DNA from: Candidatus Bathyarchaeia archaeon
Lineage (GTDB): Archaea > Thermoproteota > Bathyarchaeia > Bathyarchaeales > Bathycorpusculaceae
Reading direction: 5' to 3'
Assembly: GCA_050010515.1 (NCBI GenBank)
Contig: JBEKKX010000038.1
Coordinates: forward strand, 1 to 23,412
Length of the DNA: 23,412 bases
Shown in pieces: positions 17,593-22,589 of the stretch (position 1 is the stretch's first letter; each line of letters begins with the position of its first letter). The notes below the pieces were generated by a model. The model ran no database searches. It was not told the DNA's origin and saw only the letters and a list, made by a program, of their open reading frames with translations. A program made the position numbers and the translations under genes.

Positions 17593-18516
17593 TTGGAAAG
17601 CAATCCGTTAAGTACACGCCTTGCAGGCTTGGCGCTGGAAAACCCAACCATTCTGGCATCTGGAATACTGGGTTACTCAGCTGAATCGCTTCACCGCGTT
17701 GCCAAGGGCGGCGCAGGAGCTGTAGTTACAAAATCCATCGGTATAGAACCAAGAGTTGGCTATGCGAACCCAACGGTGGTTCAGGCAGAAAGCGGATTAA
17801 TCAACGCTATGGGGCTGCCGAACCCTGGCATCGACTTGTACGCACAAGAAATAAAGTACTCTAAAATCATCTTGCGCCTTCCGCTTATAGTCAGCGTGTT
17901 TGGTTACTCAGCAGAAGAATACGCAACAGTTGCCAAAAAAGCCGTTGATGCTGGCGCCGACGCAGTCGAGCTTAATGTTTCCTGTCCGCATGTTAAGCAA
18001 ACTGGCGCAGAAATCGGTCAAAACCCAAAACTGCTCGCTGAAGTGGTTGAAATGGTGAAGGCGGCAGTCGGCAAACCTGTAATTGTGAAGCTGTCTCCAA
18101 ACGTTGCAGATATAACCGCAATAGCCCGGGCAGCAGTTGAGGCTGGTGCAGACGCTTTAACAGCCGTGAACACGCTGAAGGCAATGGCGATTGATTCTGA
18201 AACGATGCGTCCAGTTTTAAGCAACATAAAAGGCGGTTTATCTGGTCCAGCCATAAAGCCAGTAGCCCTACGATGCGTATATGACATTCGCGAGGAACTA
18301 CCCGATGTGCCAATAATAGGATGCGGCGGAATAACGGATTGGCGTGATGCCGTTGAGTTTTTCTTGGCTGGTGCTTCCGCAGTTCAGGTTGGCAGTGCCA
18401 TTGCGTTGGAGGACACGGAGGTTTTCCAAGCCATAACTAGAGGAGTGGAAGTTTACTTGAGAAAGAAGCATTATGGGAGTGTGAAAGAAATTGTCGGCCT
18501 CGCTCATCGCAGCTAA
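17593..18516 (+). CDS. pyrD: Dihydroorotate dehydrogenase family 1B catalytic subunit
   Basis: NP.ILASG, VTKS, INAMGLPNPG, ELNVSCPH, KLSPN, NT, GGLSG.AIKP, GASAVQVG; GGTGAG upstream of TTG. Confidence 0.95.
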   Translation: MESNPLSTRLAGLALENPTILASGILGYSAESLHRVAKGGAGAVVTKSIGIEPRVGYANPTVVQAESGLINAMGLPNPGIDLYAQEIKYSKIILRLPLIVSVFGYSAEEYATVAKKAVDAGADAVELNVSCPHVKQTGAEIGQNPKLLAEVVEMVKAAVGKPVIVKLSPNVADITAIARAAVEAGADALTAVNTLKAMAIDSETMRPVLSNIKGGLSGPAIKPVALRCVYDIREELPDVPIIGCGGITDWRDAVEFFLAGASAVQVGSAIALEDTEVFQAITRGVEVYLRKKHYGSVKEIVGLAHRS

Positions 18517-19309
18517 CACGCTTAGAACGACGGAAATCGTGCAGGTTAGAGTTGAGAGTCCAACCGTTAAAACTTTCATTGTGCCTGATAGGTTATGCTC
18601 TAAAGCTAAACCGGGGCAGTTCTTGATGCTTTGGATTCCGGGCGTGGACGAAATCCCCATGAGCATAATGGACGCAGGTAACGGGCTAGTTTCTGTTTCA
18701 GTCAAGCAAGTGGGTGATGCCACAAGGCATTTGCACAGCATGGCTGCAGGCGAAACCGTCGGCGTACGTGGACCTTTCGGTAACAGTTTCACTGAAAGCC
18801 GAGGCAGAGTCCTCTTGGTAAGCGGCGGAACAGGAACGGCTCCTTTGCTGTTTTTGGCAAAGCAGCTTTCAGCTAAAACTGAACGGTTGTCGTTTGTTGA
18901 GGGCGCCAAAACCAAAGATGAACTGCTCTTTATTCGGGAGCTTAAAGGCGTCTGCAACGAGAAAAGCTTGATTACAACAACGGAAGACGGCACTTATGGC
19001 TTGCAATGCTTGGTAACTGAGCCTCTAAGCAGCCTGTTGGACAGAGAAAAATTCGACATGATCTACACTTGTGGTCCAGAAGTGATGGTAAAGAAAATCT
19101 TTGAGCTAACCGAGCAACGCAAATTGCCTATAGAAGCAAGCTTAGAGAGGCTGATGCGCTGCGGCATAGGCTTATGTGGAAGCTGCGTGATTGGCAAATA
19201 CCGCGTTTGCAGGGATGGCCCAGTTTTCACCGCTGCACAGCTAAGAGAAGTTAAGGACGAGTTGGGAATTTCAAAAATGGGCTTTGACGGCTCAAGAATA
19301 CCCTTCTAA
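18491..19309 (+). CDS. pyrK: Dihydroorotate dehydrogenase electron transfer subunit
   Basis: PGQF.MLW.PGVDE.PMS, RGPFGN, GG.G.AP, TEDG, CGPE.M, SLER.MRCG.GLCGSC...VC.DGPVF [2Fe-2S] motif; overlaps pyrD. Confidence 0.95.
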   Translation: MSASLIAANTLRTTEIVQVRVESPTVKTFIVPDRLCSKAKPGQFLMLWIPGVDEIPMSIMDAGNGLVSVSVKQVGDATRHLHSMAAGETVGVRGPFGNSFTESRGRVLLVSGGTGTAPLLFLAKQLSAKTERLSFVEGAKTKDELLFIRELKGVCNEKSLITTTEDGTYGLQCLVTEPLSSLLDREKFDMIYTCGPEVMVKKIFELTEQRKLPIEASLERLMRCGIGLCGSCVIGKYRVCRDGPVFTAAQLREVKDELGISKMGFDGSRIPF

Positions 19310-19326
19310 ACGGCGTTTGATAAGGG

Positions 19327-19611
19327 ATGTTGCCTCAGCCAGAACTGGAAGAGCTTGCTCGAAAAGCAGTACTTCTCTACAACAGGGTTAGGAGCCCTGA
19401 AGTCACAGCCAAACTCGTATTCGCCACGCCAGCAATGCTCACGGTCTCGTTTTCCGGCGGCTTCTGCTACGGCTGCGGCGTACTCGACATCGTTGAAGGC
19501 TTCGCCCACCAATTCAAAGCCTTAACCAACAATGCAGAGTTGAAAGTGGGCAAGACAAGACAGATAAACCCAAGAACCTTCGAAGCAGATTACGTCGTCA
19601 AGGCTAAGTAG
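19327..19611 (+). CDS. Small archaeal hypothetical protein with a CxxC motif
   Basis: YN..RSPE...FSG.FCYGCGV.D..E.F motif; lies directly behind pyrK. Confidence 0.7.
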   Translation: MLPQPELEELARKAVLLYNRVRSPEVTAKLVFATPAMLTVSFSGGFCYGCGVLDIVEGFAHQFKALTNNAELKVGKTRQINPRTFEADYVVKAK

Positions 19612-19616
19612 CCAAT

Positions 19617-19734
19617 GTTGGGTGCCTCAGCGAAAAAAATTCTGGCAAAAAATTAATTCGGTTCCACATTAAAGATCCACACGGCTGTCGGCATAACTGG
19701 TATATATGGGTTCAATTCTCATCCCCCAGCTCCA
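19617..19734 (+). pseudogene. Degenerate tRNA-Cys-like sequence with an intron-like insert (copy 1)
   Basis: 5' GTTGGG can pair with 3' CCCAGC, followed by T-CCA. T arm ATGGG-TTCAATT-CTCAT. Decayed anticodon arm keeps GCA at 19691-19693. About 45 extra nt in the D region. Confidence 0.6.
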
Positions 19735-19808
19735 TGATTTCTCAGTTAGACTTGAGGATAGCAATCTTCTTATCATACGGGTTTGTTATACTATATTGGT
19801 AATACCTA

Positions 19809-20039
19809 ATGGCAATGGACGAAACTGTTTGCGCAAAGGTTCCAGCTGAACTTAAGAAAAAGTTATCCAGCTTAGGCGTAAATGTGAGCGAGCTGATAAG
19901 AGAAACCTTGCAGTCAGAAGTAGACCGATTGGAAAGAGAACGCCTAAACAAACTTGCCAAAGAGGTATCAGAAATTCTTAAAAAGATTCCGCCTGAAGAA
20001 TTTACTCAATCCATTCGGGCTACAAGGGACAGCAGATGA
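19809..20039 (+). CDS. vapB: Type II antitoxin, VapB/CcdA-like ribbon-helix-helix
   Basis: TVCAKVPAELKKKL...VNVSELIRETL and C-terminal IRATRDSR; ATGA overlap with the PIN gene. Confidence 0.8.
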   Translation: MAMDETVCAKVPAELKKKLSSLGVNVSELIRETLQSEVDRLERERLNKLAKEVSEILKKIPPEEFTQSIRATRDSR

Positions 20040-20458
20040 CAAAGTCGCAGTTACTGTTTGACTCCAACATCGTATACAAGCTCATTAGAGAACAGCCACA
20101 GGACGCCGTGGAAAAACTGGTTAATGGCACAACGATTTATTTAGCGTACTACGAGCTGGGCAATGCGTTGTGGAGAGAATGTCTTTTGCTTAAAAGGATA
20201 AGTATTGAAGAGGCTAAAAAATCATTGGATCTGATGTACTCGATTCTTGAACGTATGCAGGTAGCCTCGCTTGATAATGAGACAGGAAGCGAAGTATTGG
20301 ACACAGCGTACAAATTTAACTTGACATTTTATGACACAGCTTATGTTATAGAGGCAAAGAAATCTGATAAGATCTTAGTCACAGATGACATTAAACTTGC
20401 CAAAGCTGCAGAAAACTTAGGCATAAAAACCTTATCCAGCAAGACGCTTATGCAATAA
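20036..20458 (+). CDS. vapC: PIN-domain toxin
   Basis: LLFDSN, YELGNALW, LTFYD.AY, LVTDD.KL acidic PIN active-site pattern. Confidence 0.9.
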   Translation: MTKSQLLFDSNIVYKLIREQPQDAVEKLVNGTTIYLAYYELGNALWRECLLLKRISIEEAKKSLDLMYSILERMQVASLDNETGSEVLDTAYKFNLTFYDTAYVIEAKKSDKILVTDDIKLAKAAENLGIKTLSSKTLMQ

Positions 20459-20470
20459 TTGTCCCACAAC

Positions 20471-20590
20471 ATTGAGACGCAGAATGGAAAAAAACGTCAG
20501 ACTAAATGTTTCCTTAGCCGTCACATTAGGCATCAATAATTAGTCAGCCTGCAGAGCTGTTTTATAATGGTTCAATTCCCATCCCCAGCT
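20471..20590 (+). pseudogene. Degenerate tRNA-Cys(GCA)-like sequence (copy 2)
   Basis: Anticodon arm CAGC-CTGCAGA-GCTG (20545-20559), T-arm-like ATGGTTCAATTCCCAT, acceptor 3' strand CCCCAGC-T. The 5' part is decayed but colinear with copy 1. Confidence 0.65.
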
Positions 20591-20679
20591 TTTTAGGCGA
20601 ATCACAGGCTTTTTGATGAGTTGTTTGAGTTTTTCTATGTGGTGCCGTCAAGAGCGGTTTGGGTTGTTATGCGGTTGCG

Positions 20680-21063
20680 TTAGAGGTTTTTTCGGATTTC
20701 TTTGATTTTGTCGAGTAGTTTTGCTTCGGTGCTTTCTGGGGGATTTGCCTCAGGTGGAGGCGGGGTATCGTTTGGGTTGCCTGCGGGGCTGATTGTGACT
20801 TCAAATATGGCGCCTGCCAAGCTCTTTTCTTCATCACGCTCGAGGATTTTCATGGTGAGTTTAGGTACTGTTATGCGTCCGTCTACGGCTGTTTTTGCCA
20901 GGAACTCTTCTTCCCCGTAGCTTTCTGGCTCGAGGGATTTGACGGTGACTTTTAGCAGTTCGCCCGGCTGCATTTTGTGGCTCCACCGCAGAAGCGTTGG
21001 AATTGCAAGCCTGTTGTGGCGTTGAAGTTTAGCTTTGAATGTTTCCTGCTTTGTAAGCGGCAT
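20680..21063 (-). CDS. Tandem AbrB/MazE/SpoVT-like swapped-hairpin DNA-binding protein
   Basis: Two repeats: FKAKLQRHNRLAIP..LR....QPGELL.V and FLAKTAVDGRITVPK; AAGGTG upstream of ATG 21063. Confidence 0.7.
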   Translation of the reverse strand: MPLTKQETFKAKLQRHNRLAIPTLLRWSHKMQPGELLKVTVKSLEPESYGEEEFLAKTAVDGRITVPKLTMKILERDEEKSLAGAIFEVTISPAGNPNDTPPPPEANPPESTEAKLLDKIKEIRKNL

Positions 21064-21081
21064 GTAGAGTGCACCTTTTCC

Positions 21082-21130
21082 CATCTTTCAGTATCTTTAT
21101 GTATCTTTTTCTATCTTTTTATATCTTTTT
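21082..21130. promoter_or_regulatory. Five (T/C)ATCTTT direct repeats at exact 10-bp spacing upstream of the AbrB-like gene
   Basis: ccatctttca gtatctttat gtatcttttt ctatcttttt atatcttttt (21081-21130). Confidence 0.55.
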
Positions 21131-21287
21131 TAACCCTAACCAGCAACAAGTTCAAACGCTAAACCAAAAAACCAACCCAAAACACAAACACCCAAACCCC
21201 TCCTCCTACCTAATTTTTACACAATAAAACCGCTCACTAAAATCAATCGACGTAAAAGTCAAAAAACAATCAAAAAAGAGAAAAAGC

Positions 21288-22469
21288 TTATGTTTCTTCT
21301 TGGGGTAACCCAATCTTTCGCAAGTAATCTTTTGCATATCTAGGATTGTAGGATAGCAGCTCTTTGCTTCGTAGCAGTCTCCTCTCAAGCCTCTCTAATG
21401 CCACTCTAAAAGTTGGTTCAACACCCCAGCCTTCGCTTGCGCTAAAGAATGTTCCCTTCACCGTCCTAAACTGCAAACGGCAATGAATCAGCGGTGTTCC
21501 CCTTAGGCTTGTGTTGCCATGACTTTTCATGTAGACAAAAAGTGTTCCTAACTGGAAAGCGTCTTGATACTTATGCGCGAAGGAATCGAATTCTTCCATC
21601 ATGAATCCCTGCTGATCAGGGCTTACATCTACGTCTTTAACGCCGAACTGCACCGATAACTTCTTCTCAACAACTTCTAACTGGGAGATTGGCTCAAGAA
21701 AATCACGCTTCGTCACGATGCCAACTAGTCTTTCGTTTGAAACAACTGCTAAACAGGAAATGTCATGATCATGCATTATTTTCTCTGTGACGCGCAGGCT
21801 CGTTTGAGGTTCAACCGTAATTACTGGTCTAGCCATTATGCCTTTAGCTGGCACGCTTAGGGTTTCAATTTTTTCTCCAACTATATCTCCAGTTGTCTGG
21901 CGCTTCTGCGGCCAATAAATATTCTCCAAAATATCTTGAATGCTAATTATGCCAACAAGTTTGCCGTTGTCCATGACTGGAACATGAGAAATACCATATT
22001 CCCTCATTAAACTAAGAACCGCCCCCACAGAACGATTTGCCTCAATAGTGTGAGGCGCCCTAGTCATGATTTTCTCTATCGCGTTGTTACCCCACTCTTG
22101 AAGAACAGTCGCATGAATAATATTCTCATCAGTTACAAACCCCAACAGCTTATTCTTCTCAAAAACCGGAAGCTGCCTCATCTCACTCTCAATCATCAAC
22201 TTGGCCATTTTACTTAGGGAAAAATCAACAGTAACTGGGGGCGCAACCTTCATCAACGTTCTGACCTTGGTCGCGGTAGAATCAAGTCTTGACCTTAAAA
22301 TCGAGCGCCTAGTAATTATGCCTTCATACTTGCCCTTATCATTTAAAACAGCTAAAACCGGAGGCATACCTGTTTCAAATGCTTCTAAACACCGAGACAG
22401 TGTATCGCTTTCTTGAACAGAGTTAAACCCATTTGAATAGACATCTTTAGCAAAAATTAAGCTCGCCAT
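21288..22469 (-). CDS. Four-CBS-domain protein with a C-terminal HPF/RaiA-like domain; candidate ribosome hibernation factor
   Basis: Four CBS motifs (GIITRRS, GFVTDEN, GIISIQD, GIVTKRD), then a beta-alpha-beta-beta-beta-alpha segment ending FFSASEGWGVEPTFRVALERLERRL. ATG 22469 follows GGTG. Confidence 0.75.
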   Translation of the reverse strand: MASLIFAKDVYSNGFNSVQESDTLSRCLEAFETGMPPVLAVLNDKGKYEGIITRRSILRSRLDSTATKVRTLMKVAPPVTVDFSLSKMAKLMIESEMRQLPVFEKNKLLGFVTDENIIHATVLQEWGNNAIEKIMTRAPHTIEANRSVGAVLSLMREYGISHVPVMDNGKLVGIISIQDILENIYWPQKRQTTGDIVGEKIETLSVPAKGIMARPVITVEPQTSLRVTEKIMHDHDISCLAVVSNERLVGIVTKRDFLEPISQLEVVEKKLSVQFGVKDVDVSPDQQGFMMEEFDSFAHKYQDAFQLGTLFVYMKSHGNTSLRGTPLIHCRLQFRTVKGTFFSASEGWGVEPTFRVALERLERRLLRSKELLSYNPRYAKDYLRKIGLPQEET

Positions 22470-22589
22470 GACTAACACCAGATTGGAAAGGATATGATAA
22501 GGTTTGCATTGAGTTTTTATCCTCACAGAAAAAAGGAACACAACACACCTATAAGTGCTTTTTGAAACGGGGTTTTAGAGTTTACAGGA

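Follow-up and report, generated by a model that had tools for sequence, protein, structure and literature searches.

Why should a small toxin-antitoxin (TA) operon in an archaeal chromosome stand between two pieces of one and the same tRNA gene? The question is raised by a 23,412-nt stretch of DNA from a Candidatus Bathyarchaeia archaeon (assembly GCA_050010515.1, contig JBEKKX010000038.1, positions 1 to 23,412), hereafter the window, in which a vapBC gene pair is bracketed by two direct repeats that resemble tRNA-Cys. The genome holding the window is referred to as G000 and all bare coordinates are window positions. The original prediction, made from the sequence alone, regarded the repeats as full-length, dead tRNA-Cys copies with an intron-like insert of about 45 nt, and listed a scar of serial integration among its explanations. 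Here we explore the repeats, the cassette between them and their counterparts in related genomes. Very probably the repeats are attachment site (att) scars that delimit an integrase-less vapBC cassette of 0.86 kb, which would make the locus a scar of serial integration and an archaeal counterpart of the bacterial cis-mobilizable elements (CIMEs).

The repeats are partial copies of tRNA-Cys

G000 contains a single intact tRNA-Cys(GCA) gene, located at C17:25036-25108 on the reverse strand (ARAGORN; Rfam 62.1 bits) and hence on a different contig from the window. Both repeats are att-type direct partial copies of the 3' two thirds of this tRNA, from the anticodon stem to the discriminator base, which bears out the tRNA-Cys origin proposed for them. 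Copy 2 (20545-20590, forward strand) is 93.5% identical to tRNA positions 28-73 (46 nt, E 3e-13), or 94% identical over 50 nt when its run-on into the following T-run is included. Its last 22 nt are the exact tRNA-Cys end, with the 21-mer GGTTCAATTCCCATCCCCAGC as an exact match, and it retains the CAGC-CTGCAGA-GCTG anticodon arm that had been read from it. The run of five T that follows (20590-20594, forward strand) is the same as that behind the native gene, which continues with TTTTTGG and lacks an encoded CCA. Copy 1 (19682-19731, forward strand) corresponds to tRNA positions ~25-73 in decayed form: it is 82% identical over positions 25-69 (19682-19726, E 5e-8) and 96% identical over 26 nt in the T arm, the part that is also homologous to the left fragment found in the related genome G046.

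Colinearity of the two copies over some 120 bp, as originally described, holds only for their 3' parts. A repeat search of the window shows that the copies share 36 nt at 81%, and the local alignment of 19686-19734 with 20545-20594 scores 47, compared with 12.7 ± 2.4 for shuffled sequences, none of 2000 of which reached that score. The 5' parts (19617-19685 and 20471-20544) do not follow: their local alignment is at chance, with 371-468 of 2000 shuffles reaching the score, and their global alignment exceeds chance weakly (7 of 2000), which we take as unproven. Compared with the 5' half of tRNA-Cys (positions 1-27) both are again at chance, as 260 and 117 of 2000 shuffles reach their scores. 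Since these ~75 nt match neither tRNA-Cys nor, locally, each other, neither copy is a full-length, intron-bearing dead tRNA; only tRNA positions from about 25 (copy 1) or 28 (copy 2) to 73 are present. With a functional tRNA-Cys gene on another contig and copies that are partial, what we find is largely what the original prediction had itself set against its reading.

Searches for tRNAs agree with this. ARAGORN finds none in the window, nor on contig C38 when introns are allowed, Rfam finds none at E ≤ 10 in 19000-21200, and the 118-120 nt copies fold no better than shuffled sequences (z +0.95 and 0.00). It is hardly credible, then, that the copies are full-length tRNA-Cys pseudogenes or tRNA-like RNAs with an insert of about 45 nt in the D region, a view to which the weak global alignment of the 5' parts lends some support, as does the minimum free energy (MFE) fold of copy 1, in which the T arm forms and GUUGGG pairs with CCCAGC. 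These six base pairs are the acceptor pairing claimed for copy 1; they do form, but their 5' strand is lost in the only homologue of the segment, in G004:C45. The CCA claimed along with them belongs to the cassette, whose conserved left end opens with these three bases; they follow ...CAGCT in nine of 25 related loci. In G019, L098 and L094 the tRNA fragment starts about 10 nt after the vapC stop and has no 5' half of any kind.

The upstream segments that had been taken for 5' tRNA halves have other relatives. The 70-nt spacer in front of copy 1 (19612-19681, strand unassigned) is not tRNA-derived and shows no similarity to the family of the copy 2 spacer (66-401 of 500 shuffles reach the score). 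Its sole homologue is the stretch that follows orf94 in G004:C45 (local score 73 versus 15 ± 2.5, 0 of 500 shuffles), and a cassette since lost probably left it behind as its tail. The 86-nt spacer in front of copy 2 (20459-20544, forward strand), bounded by CAATAATT repeats, is shared with G046, L093 and L091 and is missing from G019, L098 and L094. It aligns with the end, i.e. the coding tail, of a cassette carrying a UPF0175 gene in G004:C45 and L096, and is the tail relic of another cassette type, which is a further argument against a pseudogene.

A third tRNA-Cys fragment (positions 20-67) was encountered in G000 at C5:77516-77591 (L070:7516-7591). The last 12 nt of the tRNA (CATCCCCAGCTT) are repeated about 20 nt past it, an arrangement suggestive of nested scars. 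Homology links the upstream arm of this fragment to the left-hand neighbour of the L093 vapBC cassette, and no TA genes adjoin the fragment.

The vapBC cassette recurs with the same ends

Between the att copies lie 0.86 kb that contain vapB and vapC only. The presence of two overlapping open reading frames (ORFs) bracketed by the direct repeat, as originally described, is upheld by the Pfam PIN match and by structure 1v8p of the Protein Data Bank (PDB). The vapB gene (19809-20039, forward strand) encodes an antitoxin of 76 aa with a CcdA-like Pfam match that is below the cut-off (E 5e-4), and VapB is 81-96% identical across related cassettes. The vapC gene (20036-20458, forward strand) encodes a PIN-domain toxin of 140 aa (25.3 bits versus a cut-off of 23.6), and its start overlaps the vapB stop in a 4-nt ATGA. 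Residues 30-134 of VapC align to the Pyrobaculum PIN protein PAE2754 (PDB 1v8p, E 3.4e-9), and the acidic residues D9, E40, D100 and D118, which we take to be the PIN signature, can be read from the sequence. The pair has the appearance of an intact type II VapBC operon, a PIN toxin preceded by a small antitoxin gene, with predicted activity. The left end of the cassette, CCATGATT...CTTCTTATCATAC...TTATACTATATT (19732-19808, forward strand), is conserved, aligning in G019, G007, G011, G002, G013 and further related VapC loci, and presumably contains the vapB promoter; the T-run behind copy 2 may act as the terminator of vapBC. Pfam and tblastn find no integrase in the cassette or beside it. 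All 24 public runs listed for this stretch are DNA runs. Both junctions are present without differences in contigs of public sequencing runs not marked as a potential source (X16 record 18 equals 19039-19839, X12 record 5 equals 20017-20773), and since these contigs are independent, a chimeric assembly across tRNA-Cys repeats is unlikely.

A set of 40 relatives was searched with window 18491-22541, after which the regions hit were fetched. A wider search for related loci gave 27 VapC loci, 25 of which were inspected for their junctions. The left end always directly follows ...CAGCT and reads CCA(A/T/C)..., after which comes the conserved motif CTTCTTATCATAC...TTATAC, and at the right end the vapC stop is followed by tRNA-Cys positions ~26-73. 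An att-like left junction is found in 15 of the 25 inspected loci and BLAST identifies the right fragment in nine, while one further locus, L096, keeps about 12 nt of it as judged by eye. Seven loci form a distant VapC clade (L106-L111 and L113; 67-73% identity) without att, in which L109-L111 and L113 share one left flank.

The surroundings of the unit vary. A true tRNA-Cys gene lies at most 2.2 kb upstream in five of the 27 loci. In G007:C29 the tRNA-Cys gene, cut by the contig end at tRNA position 22, is directly followed by vapBC and then by the fragment, and in G019:C168 the order is tRNA-Cys, an element of 5.6 kb, a short att, vapBC and a fragment of tRNA positions 26-72. G011 and G002 carry fragment-vapBC-fragment at another locus. 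A scan of metagenomes for the junction between anticodon arm and left end gave two contigs, both with a complete tRNA-Cys directly followed by CCATGATT and vapBC; one of these also carries the thioesterase gene that is usual upstream. The vapBC unit is therefore found again, its ends identical, both at the tRNA gene and at other loci. The scar of serial integration offered by the original prediction fares well here, since the copies are partial 3' tRNA-Cys copies and the same cassette is found behind the true tRNA-Cys as well as in arrays of several cassettes. Its other proposal, a minimal TA cassette moved or amplified through whole-tRNA repeats, stands in part: the same ends do occur in at least three genomic contexts, but the repeats are not whole tRNAs.

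Arrays differ by whole cassettes between close relatives

In G000 the array occupies a secondary site between orf94 and orf134, away from the tRNA gene. On its left lie pyrD and pyrK, followed by orf94 (19327-19611, forward strand), a hypothetical ORF call without Pfam match whose position after pyrK is conserved in G016, G003, G020, G013, G004 and G046. On its right lie orf134 (20680-21084, reverse strand), likewise hypothetical and without Pfam match, and a CBS-domain gene (the pyr and CBS genes were assigned by Pfam). An orf134 homologue with 57% aa identity is found at the equivalent locus in G019:C27, without any att.

The content of this array differs by whole cassettes between close relatives, with breakpoints in att. 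From orf94 to orf134, G000 has the 70-nt spacer, att copy 1, vapBC with the 86-nt spacer and att copy 2. Its relative G046, with VapC 95% and PyrK 97% identical to those of G000 and likewise with pyrK to the left of the array and the CBS gene to the right of orf134, shows HepT and MNT genes in reverse orientation, an att, vapBC with the 86-nt spacer, an att of tRNA positions 26-71, a two-gene ABC cassette and a 13-nt att core. G004:C44 contains the ABC cassette only, and G004:C45 has four other cassettes, two of which are TA pairs; its order is att, PIN and UPF0175 genes, att, UPF0175 and DUF3368 genes, att, four unknown ORFs and a last att. The alignment of G000 with G046 (92%) runs through 20588 and resumes at 20578 beyond the ABC cassette, which places the breakpoint, the one that is resolvable at this locus, inside the shared att core (20578-20588). 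The same difference exists within a single sample: in one peat run, contigs identical to G000 (~11x) coexist with contigs of the G046 type (~79x) in which vapBC runs into the start of the ABC cassette. Behind 20588-20596, contigs of public runs enter at least four different sequences, including that G046-type start. Empty sites are seen in the more distant relatives G016, G003, G020 and G013, where pyrK and orf94 are closely followed by the CBS gene, without vapBC or tRNA-like sequence.

The two versions of the orf94/orf134 locus in G004 (C44:49956-55389 and C45, the latter a 6.1 kb contig taken whole) occur in one metagenome-assembled genome (MAG), which suggests strain heterogeneity or a binning mixture.

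Integrases and two classes of att at tRNA-Cys

We then consider what could have placed such sites. Across the genus, the 21-nt tRNA-Cys end, allowing at most one mismatch, occurs in two or more copies in 41 of 120 genomes, once in 67 and not at all in 12. Behind the true tRNA-Cys gene, for instance in G062 (five att including the gene itself, within 5 kb), G095, G041, G049, G059 and G071, relatives show cassettes of 0.5-2.5 kb lined up with tRNA-Cys fragments between them. At least nine of about 15 short cassettes (≤ 1.2 kb) hold a PIN, HepT or DUF3368-type toxin gene with a small partner, in a sample that is neither random nor independent and in which several matches are below the Pfam cut-offs.

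The 71 BLAST matches to tRNA-Cys in the loci examined comprise 16 full-length ones, 31 that start at tRNA positions 20-33 and 24 that start at positions 47-57, with none starting at 34-46. There are two att classes, a long one from the anticodon stem and one that starts at the T stem, and the fragment starts coincide with the boundaries of these tRNA arms. Such a bimodal distribution fits the anticodon-arm and T-arm sublocations of integration sites that are already described (PMC8371274). In several families of T-arm att (L081:4925-4993, L077:2968-3036, L085:399-467, L088:4157-4225 and others) a hairpin of 6-8 bp, unrelated in sequence, precedes the T arm by 4-6 nt, roughly at the place that the anticodon arm takes in the tRNA; it could be an arm site of the integrase or a coincidence.

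Two types of integrase adjoin this tRNA. Canonical integrases (PF00589) are found next to the tRNA-Cys end in G075, as part of a 22 kb element, and twice in tandem in G072; by coordinates, at least 14 of the 120 genus genomes have one there. The far att of elements with a canonical integrase is of the T-arm class. The second type is SSV-like and partitioned. In G098 the long-class att lies inside the ORF of such an integrase: the peptide SWGWELNPHITALQ, encoded by the att, forms the end of Int(N) (81 aa) as well as the start of Int(C) (294 aa; PF16795, 28.3 bits). A further Int(C), again located over a long-type fragment, is present in G096 with 25.3 bits and thus below the cut-off of 27. Directly behind the long-type fragment of G098 follows an element with a canonical integrase, which shows that later elements integrate into earlier scars. 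G000 itself has no close match to either: its best match to the canonical tRNA-Cys integrase is 35-40% identical (C9:66711-67961, tblastn), and the SSV-type Int(C) matches only the tRNA gene itself.

The long class bears on a functional alternative, raised as decoy or substrate by the original prediction too, according to which the anticodon and T arms in the vapBC 3' untranslated region would mimic a tRNA and serve as decoy, substrate or regulator of the PIN RNase. Some VapC toxins cut tRNA anticodon loops, most fragments that follow TA cassettes belong to the long class, in which the anticodon stem-loop is kept, and the run of five T after the fragment could end such a transcript. We nevertheless consider mimicry very improbable. 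Cargo other than TA genes, for example the transglutaminase-like gene of G041, is also followed by long-type fragments. In G019 (CTACAGA), G007 and L091 the anticodon loop carries mutations. Moreover, because long-type fragments sit inside SSV-type integrase genes, their length is explained without a role of the RNA.

One candidate for the 5' parts of the repeats, remnants of Int(C), was dismissed: when the window was searched by tblastn with the Int(N) and Int(C) sequences from G098 and G096, att-encoded residues alone were matched. Elsewhere in G000, the ends of tRNA-Cys integrases have tblastn matches at C8:16220-16315, C44:15223-15402 and C2:88985-89095 (C- or N-terminal ends, 32-61 aa, 37-59% identity), which may be integrase remnants. 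In G096 a 77-aa ORF on the reverse strand (L127:1002-1235) runs antisense into the true tRNA-Cys, in the position of Int(N), and its N-terminal region resembles the VapB of the window (33% over 43 aa, E 0.002).

Origin of the cassette

The history that we favour starts with an element that would have integrated by means of a tyrosine recombinase whose site extends from the tRNA anticodon arm to the 3' end. As the long att class lies within the ORF of the SSV-type integrase, which is split by its own integration, the ancestor may well have encoded an integrase of this type. Loss of both integrase halves would then leave attL-vapBC-attR, with copy 1 at the attL and copy 2 at the attR side. Further elements would enter the att copies or be deleted between them, giving arrays that differ cassette-wise, and cassettes would come and go through integrases acting in trans or through recombination of one repeat with another. 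The presence of vapBC may favour retention of its cassette. Copy 2 could still be used as a landing site by an incoming element because its exact 22-nt core has been kept; copy 1 has decayed. The cassette itself is probably stranded now, since G000 has no close homologue of either type of tRNA-Cys integrase.

A number of observations weigh against this history. Shuffling could be due to homologous recombination between the 20-50 nt repeats rather than to an integrase. Excision joints are not found in the contigs of four runs (X12, X13, X16 and X20), where their absence from the sample is not implied because contigs lose rare forms, and neither the contigs nor the metagenome junction scan show an excised circle, an empty-site joint or a tandem copy. 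By tblastn no Int(N) or Int(C) remnant is recognisable in or beside the window cassette. Only two of the 31 long-type fragments in the loci examined are still adjoined by an SSV-type Int(C), so that the att class is the sole link between vapBC and an SSV-type integrase. The pyrK-orf94 locus contains no intact tRNA, and no ancestral att is seen at the empty sites of G016, G003, G020, G013 and G019:C27. Finally, nearly all genomes are MAGs and kin of one another, and counts made among them are not independent.

Some of these points would suit a more static reading, in which only relics are seen. Each cassette would be what independent erosion has left of a formerly complete element with an integrase. 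Deletion, together with homologous recombination of repeats or of strains with one another, would account for all change in the arrays, and no integrase in trans would ever have mobilised the 0.86 kb unit. No short cassette examined contains an integrase, no circle or excision joint was found in contigs or in the metagenome junction scan, and in G000, G046 and G019 there is no match to a canonical tRNA-Cys integrase above 37% identity at E ≤ 1e-60. Between genomes vapBC is 76-82% identical in nucleotides, which roughly tracks the flanking housekeeping genes (71-79%) and thereby suggests mostly vertical descent. That the same-ended unit has such different left neighbours, namely the tRNA, an element with PanE and kinase genes, HepT-MNT, hairpin-type cassettes and a cassette of the G000:C5 type, is difficult to reconcile with relics only, as are its presence at no fewer than three loci and its order relative to the 'AATCGCACCTCAAATCAAAAG'-tailed cassettes, which is reversed between G019/G011 and G046. 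Separate events of erosion are unlikely to have arrived at the same ends, so the reduced unit must have been relocated at least once, and we regard the relic reading as rather doubtful.

It is also conceivable, and to be held only tentatively, that the tRNA-Cys att copies form an integron-like platform for gene capture. Integrases acting in trans, of the SSV type for long att and canonical for T-arm att, would then be provided by passing elements and would insert, excise and re-order small integrase-less cassettes singly, often PIN, HepT or DUF3368 TA pairs; new arrays would be seeded at secondary sites like the pyrK-orf94 locus, and the TA cassettes would stabilise the arrays.

Further observations

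Upstream of orf134, the stretch 21075-21184 contains four 10-nt tandem units, ATCTTTnnnT on the forward strand or AAAGATA on the strand of the gene, directly before its start. Many relatives contain matches of 50-110 nt to this stretch, at several loci in each genome, and the units may represent a common promoter or operator, or else a small family of repeats.

The surroundings of the native tRNA-Cys gene differ as well. In relatives a hydrogenase gene, a gene for a thioesterase of 120 aa and tRNA-Cys follow each other on one strand throughout, whereas in G000 the hydrogenase homologue (C17:46841-47644) is 21.7 kb from tRNA-Cys and on the opposite strand, and no thioesterase was found by tblastn at E 1e-5. 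This suggests a rearrangement of the neighbourhood compared with its kin.

Some G000 tRNAs called by ARAGORN have introns that are long or unusually positioned: Asn(att) with 277 nt (C45:13516-13889), Trp with 92 nt (C12:33539-33711), Arg(tct) with 57 nt (C22:42876-43029) and Ala(ggc) with 54 nt (C24:30296-30440). These may in part be false and in part genuine intron-rich archaeal tRNAs.

Comparison with known systems

Tandem integration at tRNA genes, split SSV-type integrases, CIME-type remnants and the ssrA arrays of Dehalococcoides are already known. New are the host group, the very small and TA-rich cassettes, the use of one tRNA by two integrase families and the secondary locus. In a limited search we found no description of a tRNA-Cys hot spot, either by term in the Bathyarchaeia papers PMC11697101 and PMC10848311 or in the literature listings. 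The gene is a busy integration site in a widespread peat and soil genus of Bathyarchaeia, and possibly an undescribed hot spot. For annotation this means that partial tRNA copies of this sort are to be read first as att scars and not as dead intron-bearing tRNAs.

The closest archaeal parallel is the SSV-type integrase family, in which the integrase gene is broken into Int(N) and Int(C) upon integration (PMC7253208 and PMC8371274). As in this 'suicidal' integration, the att extends from the anticodon arm to the tRNA 3' end and lies inside the integrase ORF, with the split itself seen in G098, and the trapped element then decays. The window cassette differs in that it lacks both integrase halves, measures 0.86 kb and resides at a non-tRNA site, and the hosts are mesophilic peat Bathyarchaeia instead of hyperthermophiles. 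If the cassettes move singly, the arrays would provide a tractable case of how split integrases leave genes trapped in chromosomes.

Among bacteria, CIMEs of Streptococcus and others have lost their integration genes and kept attL and attR, and new elements enter the flanking att to give tandem arrays (PMC5704250). The window cassette likewise keeps attL and attR and lacks integration and transfer genes. Here, however, the host is archaeal, the cassettes have one or two genes, many of them TA pairs, there is no conjugation machinery, and mobilisation is conjectural. The ssrA islands of Dehalococcoides (PMC3146451) combine varied cargo, a single small-RNA target gene and diversity at strain level, and they resemble the present arrays in that many units of varied cargo share one small-RNA gene as target. 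They are about 12 kb long and about half of them contain an integration module, compared with mostly 0.5-2.5 kb without integrase here, where a secondary, non-tRNA locus has been colonised as well.

With archaeal VapBC, represented by Pyrobaculum PAE2754, the window pair shares VapC homology and a small antitoxin gene upstream with a 4-nt overlap, toxicity and an RNA target being predicted only. Chromosomal integrons also form arrays of small, mostly single-operon cassettes separated by recombination sites, among which TA cassettes are frequent. The window array is not a member of the integron family: there is no IntI/attI platform, its sites are direct copies of a tRNA 3' part and not attC hairpins, and no integrase is found at the array ends in G000, G046 or G004. 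If the cassettes do move singly, the tRNA-Cys arrays would offer archaea a simple parallel to the accretion of CIMEs or to the cassettes of integrons.

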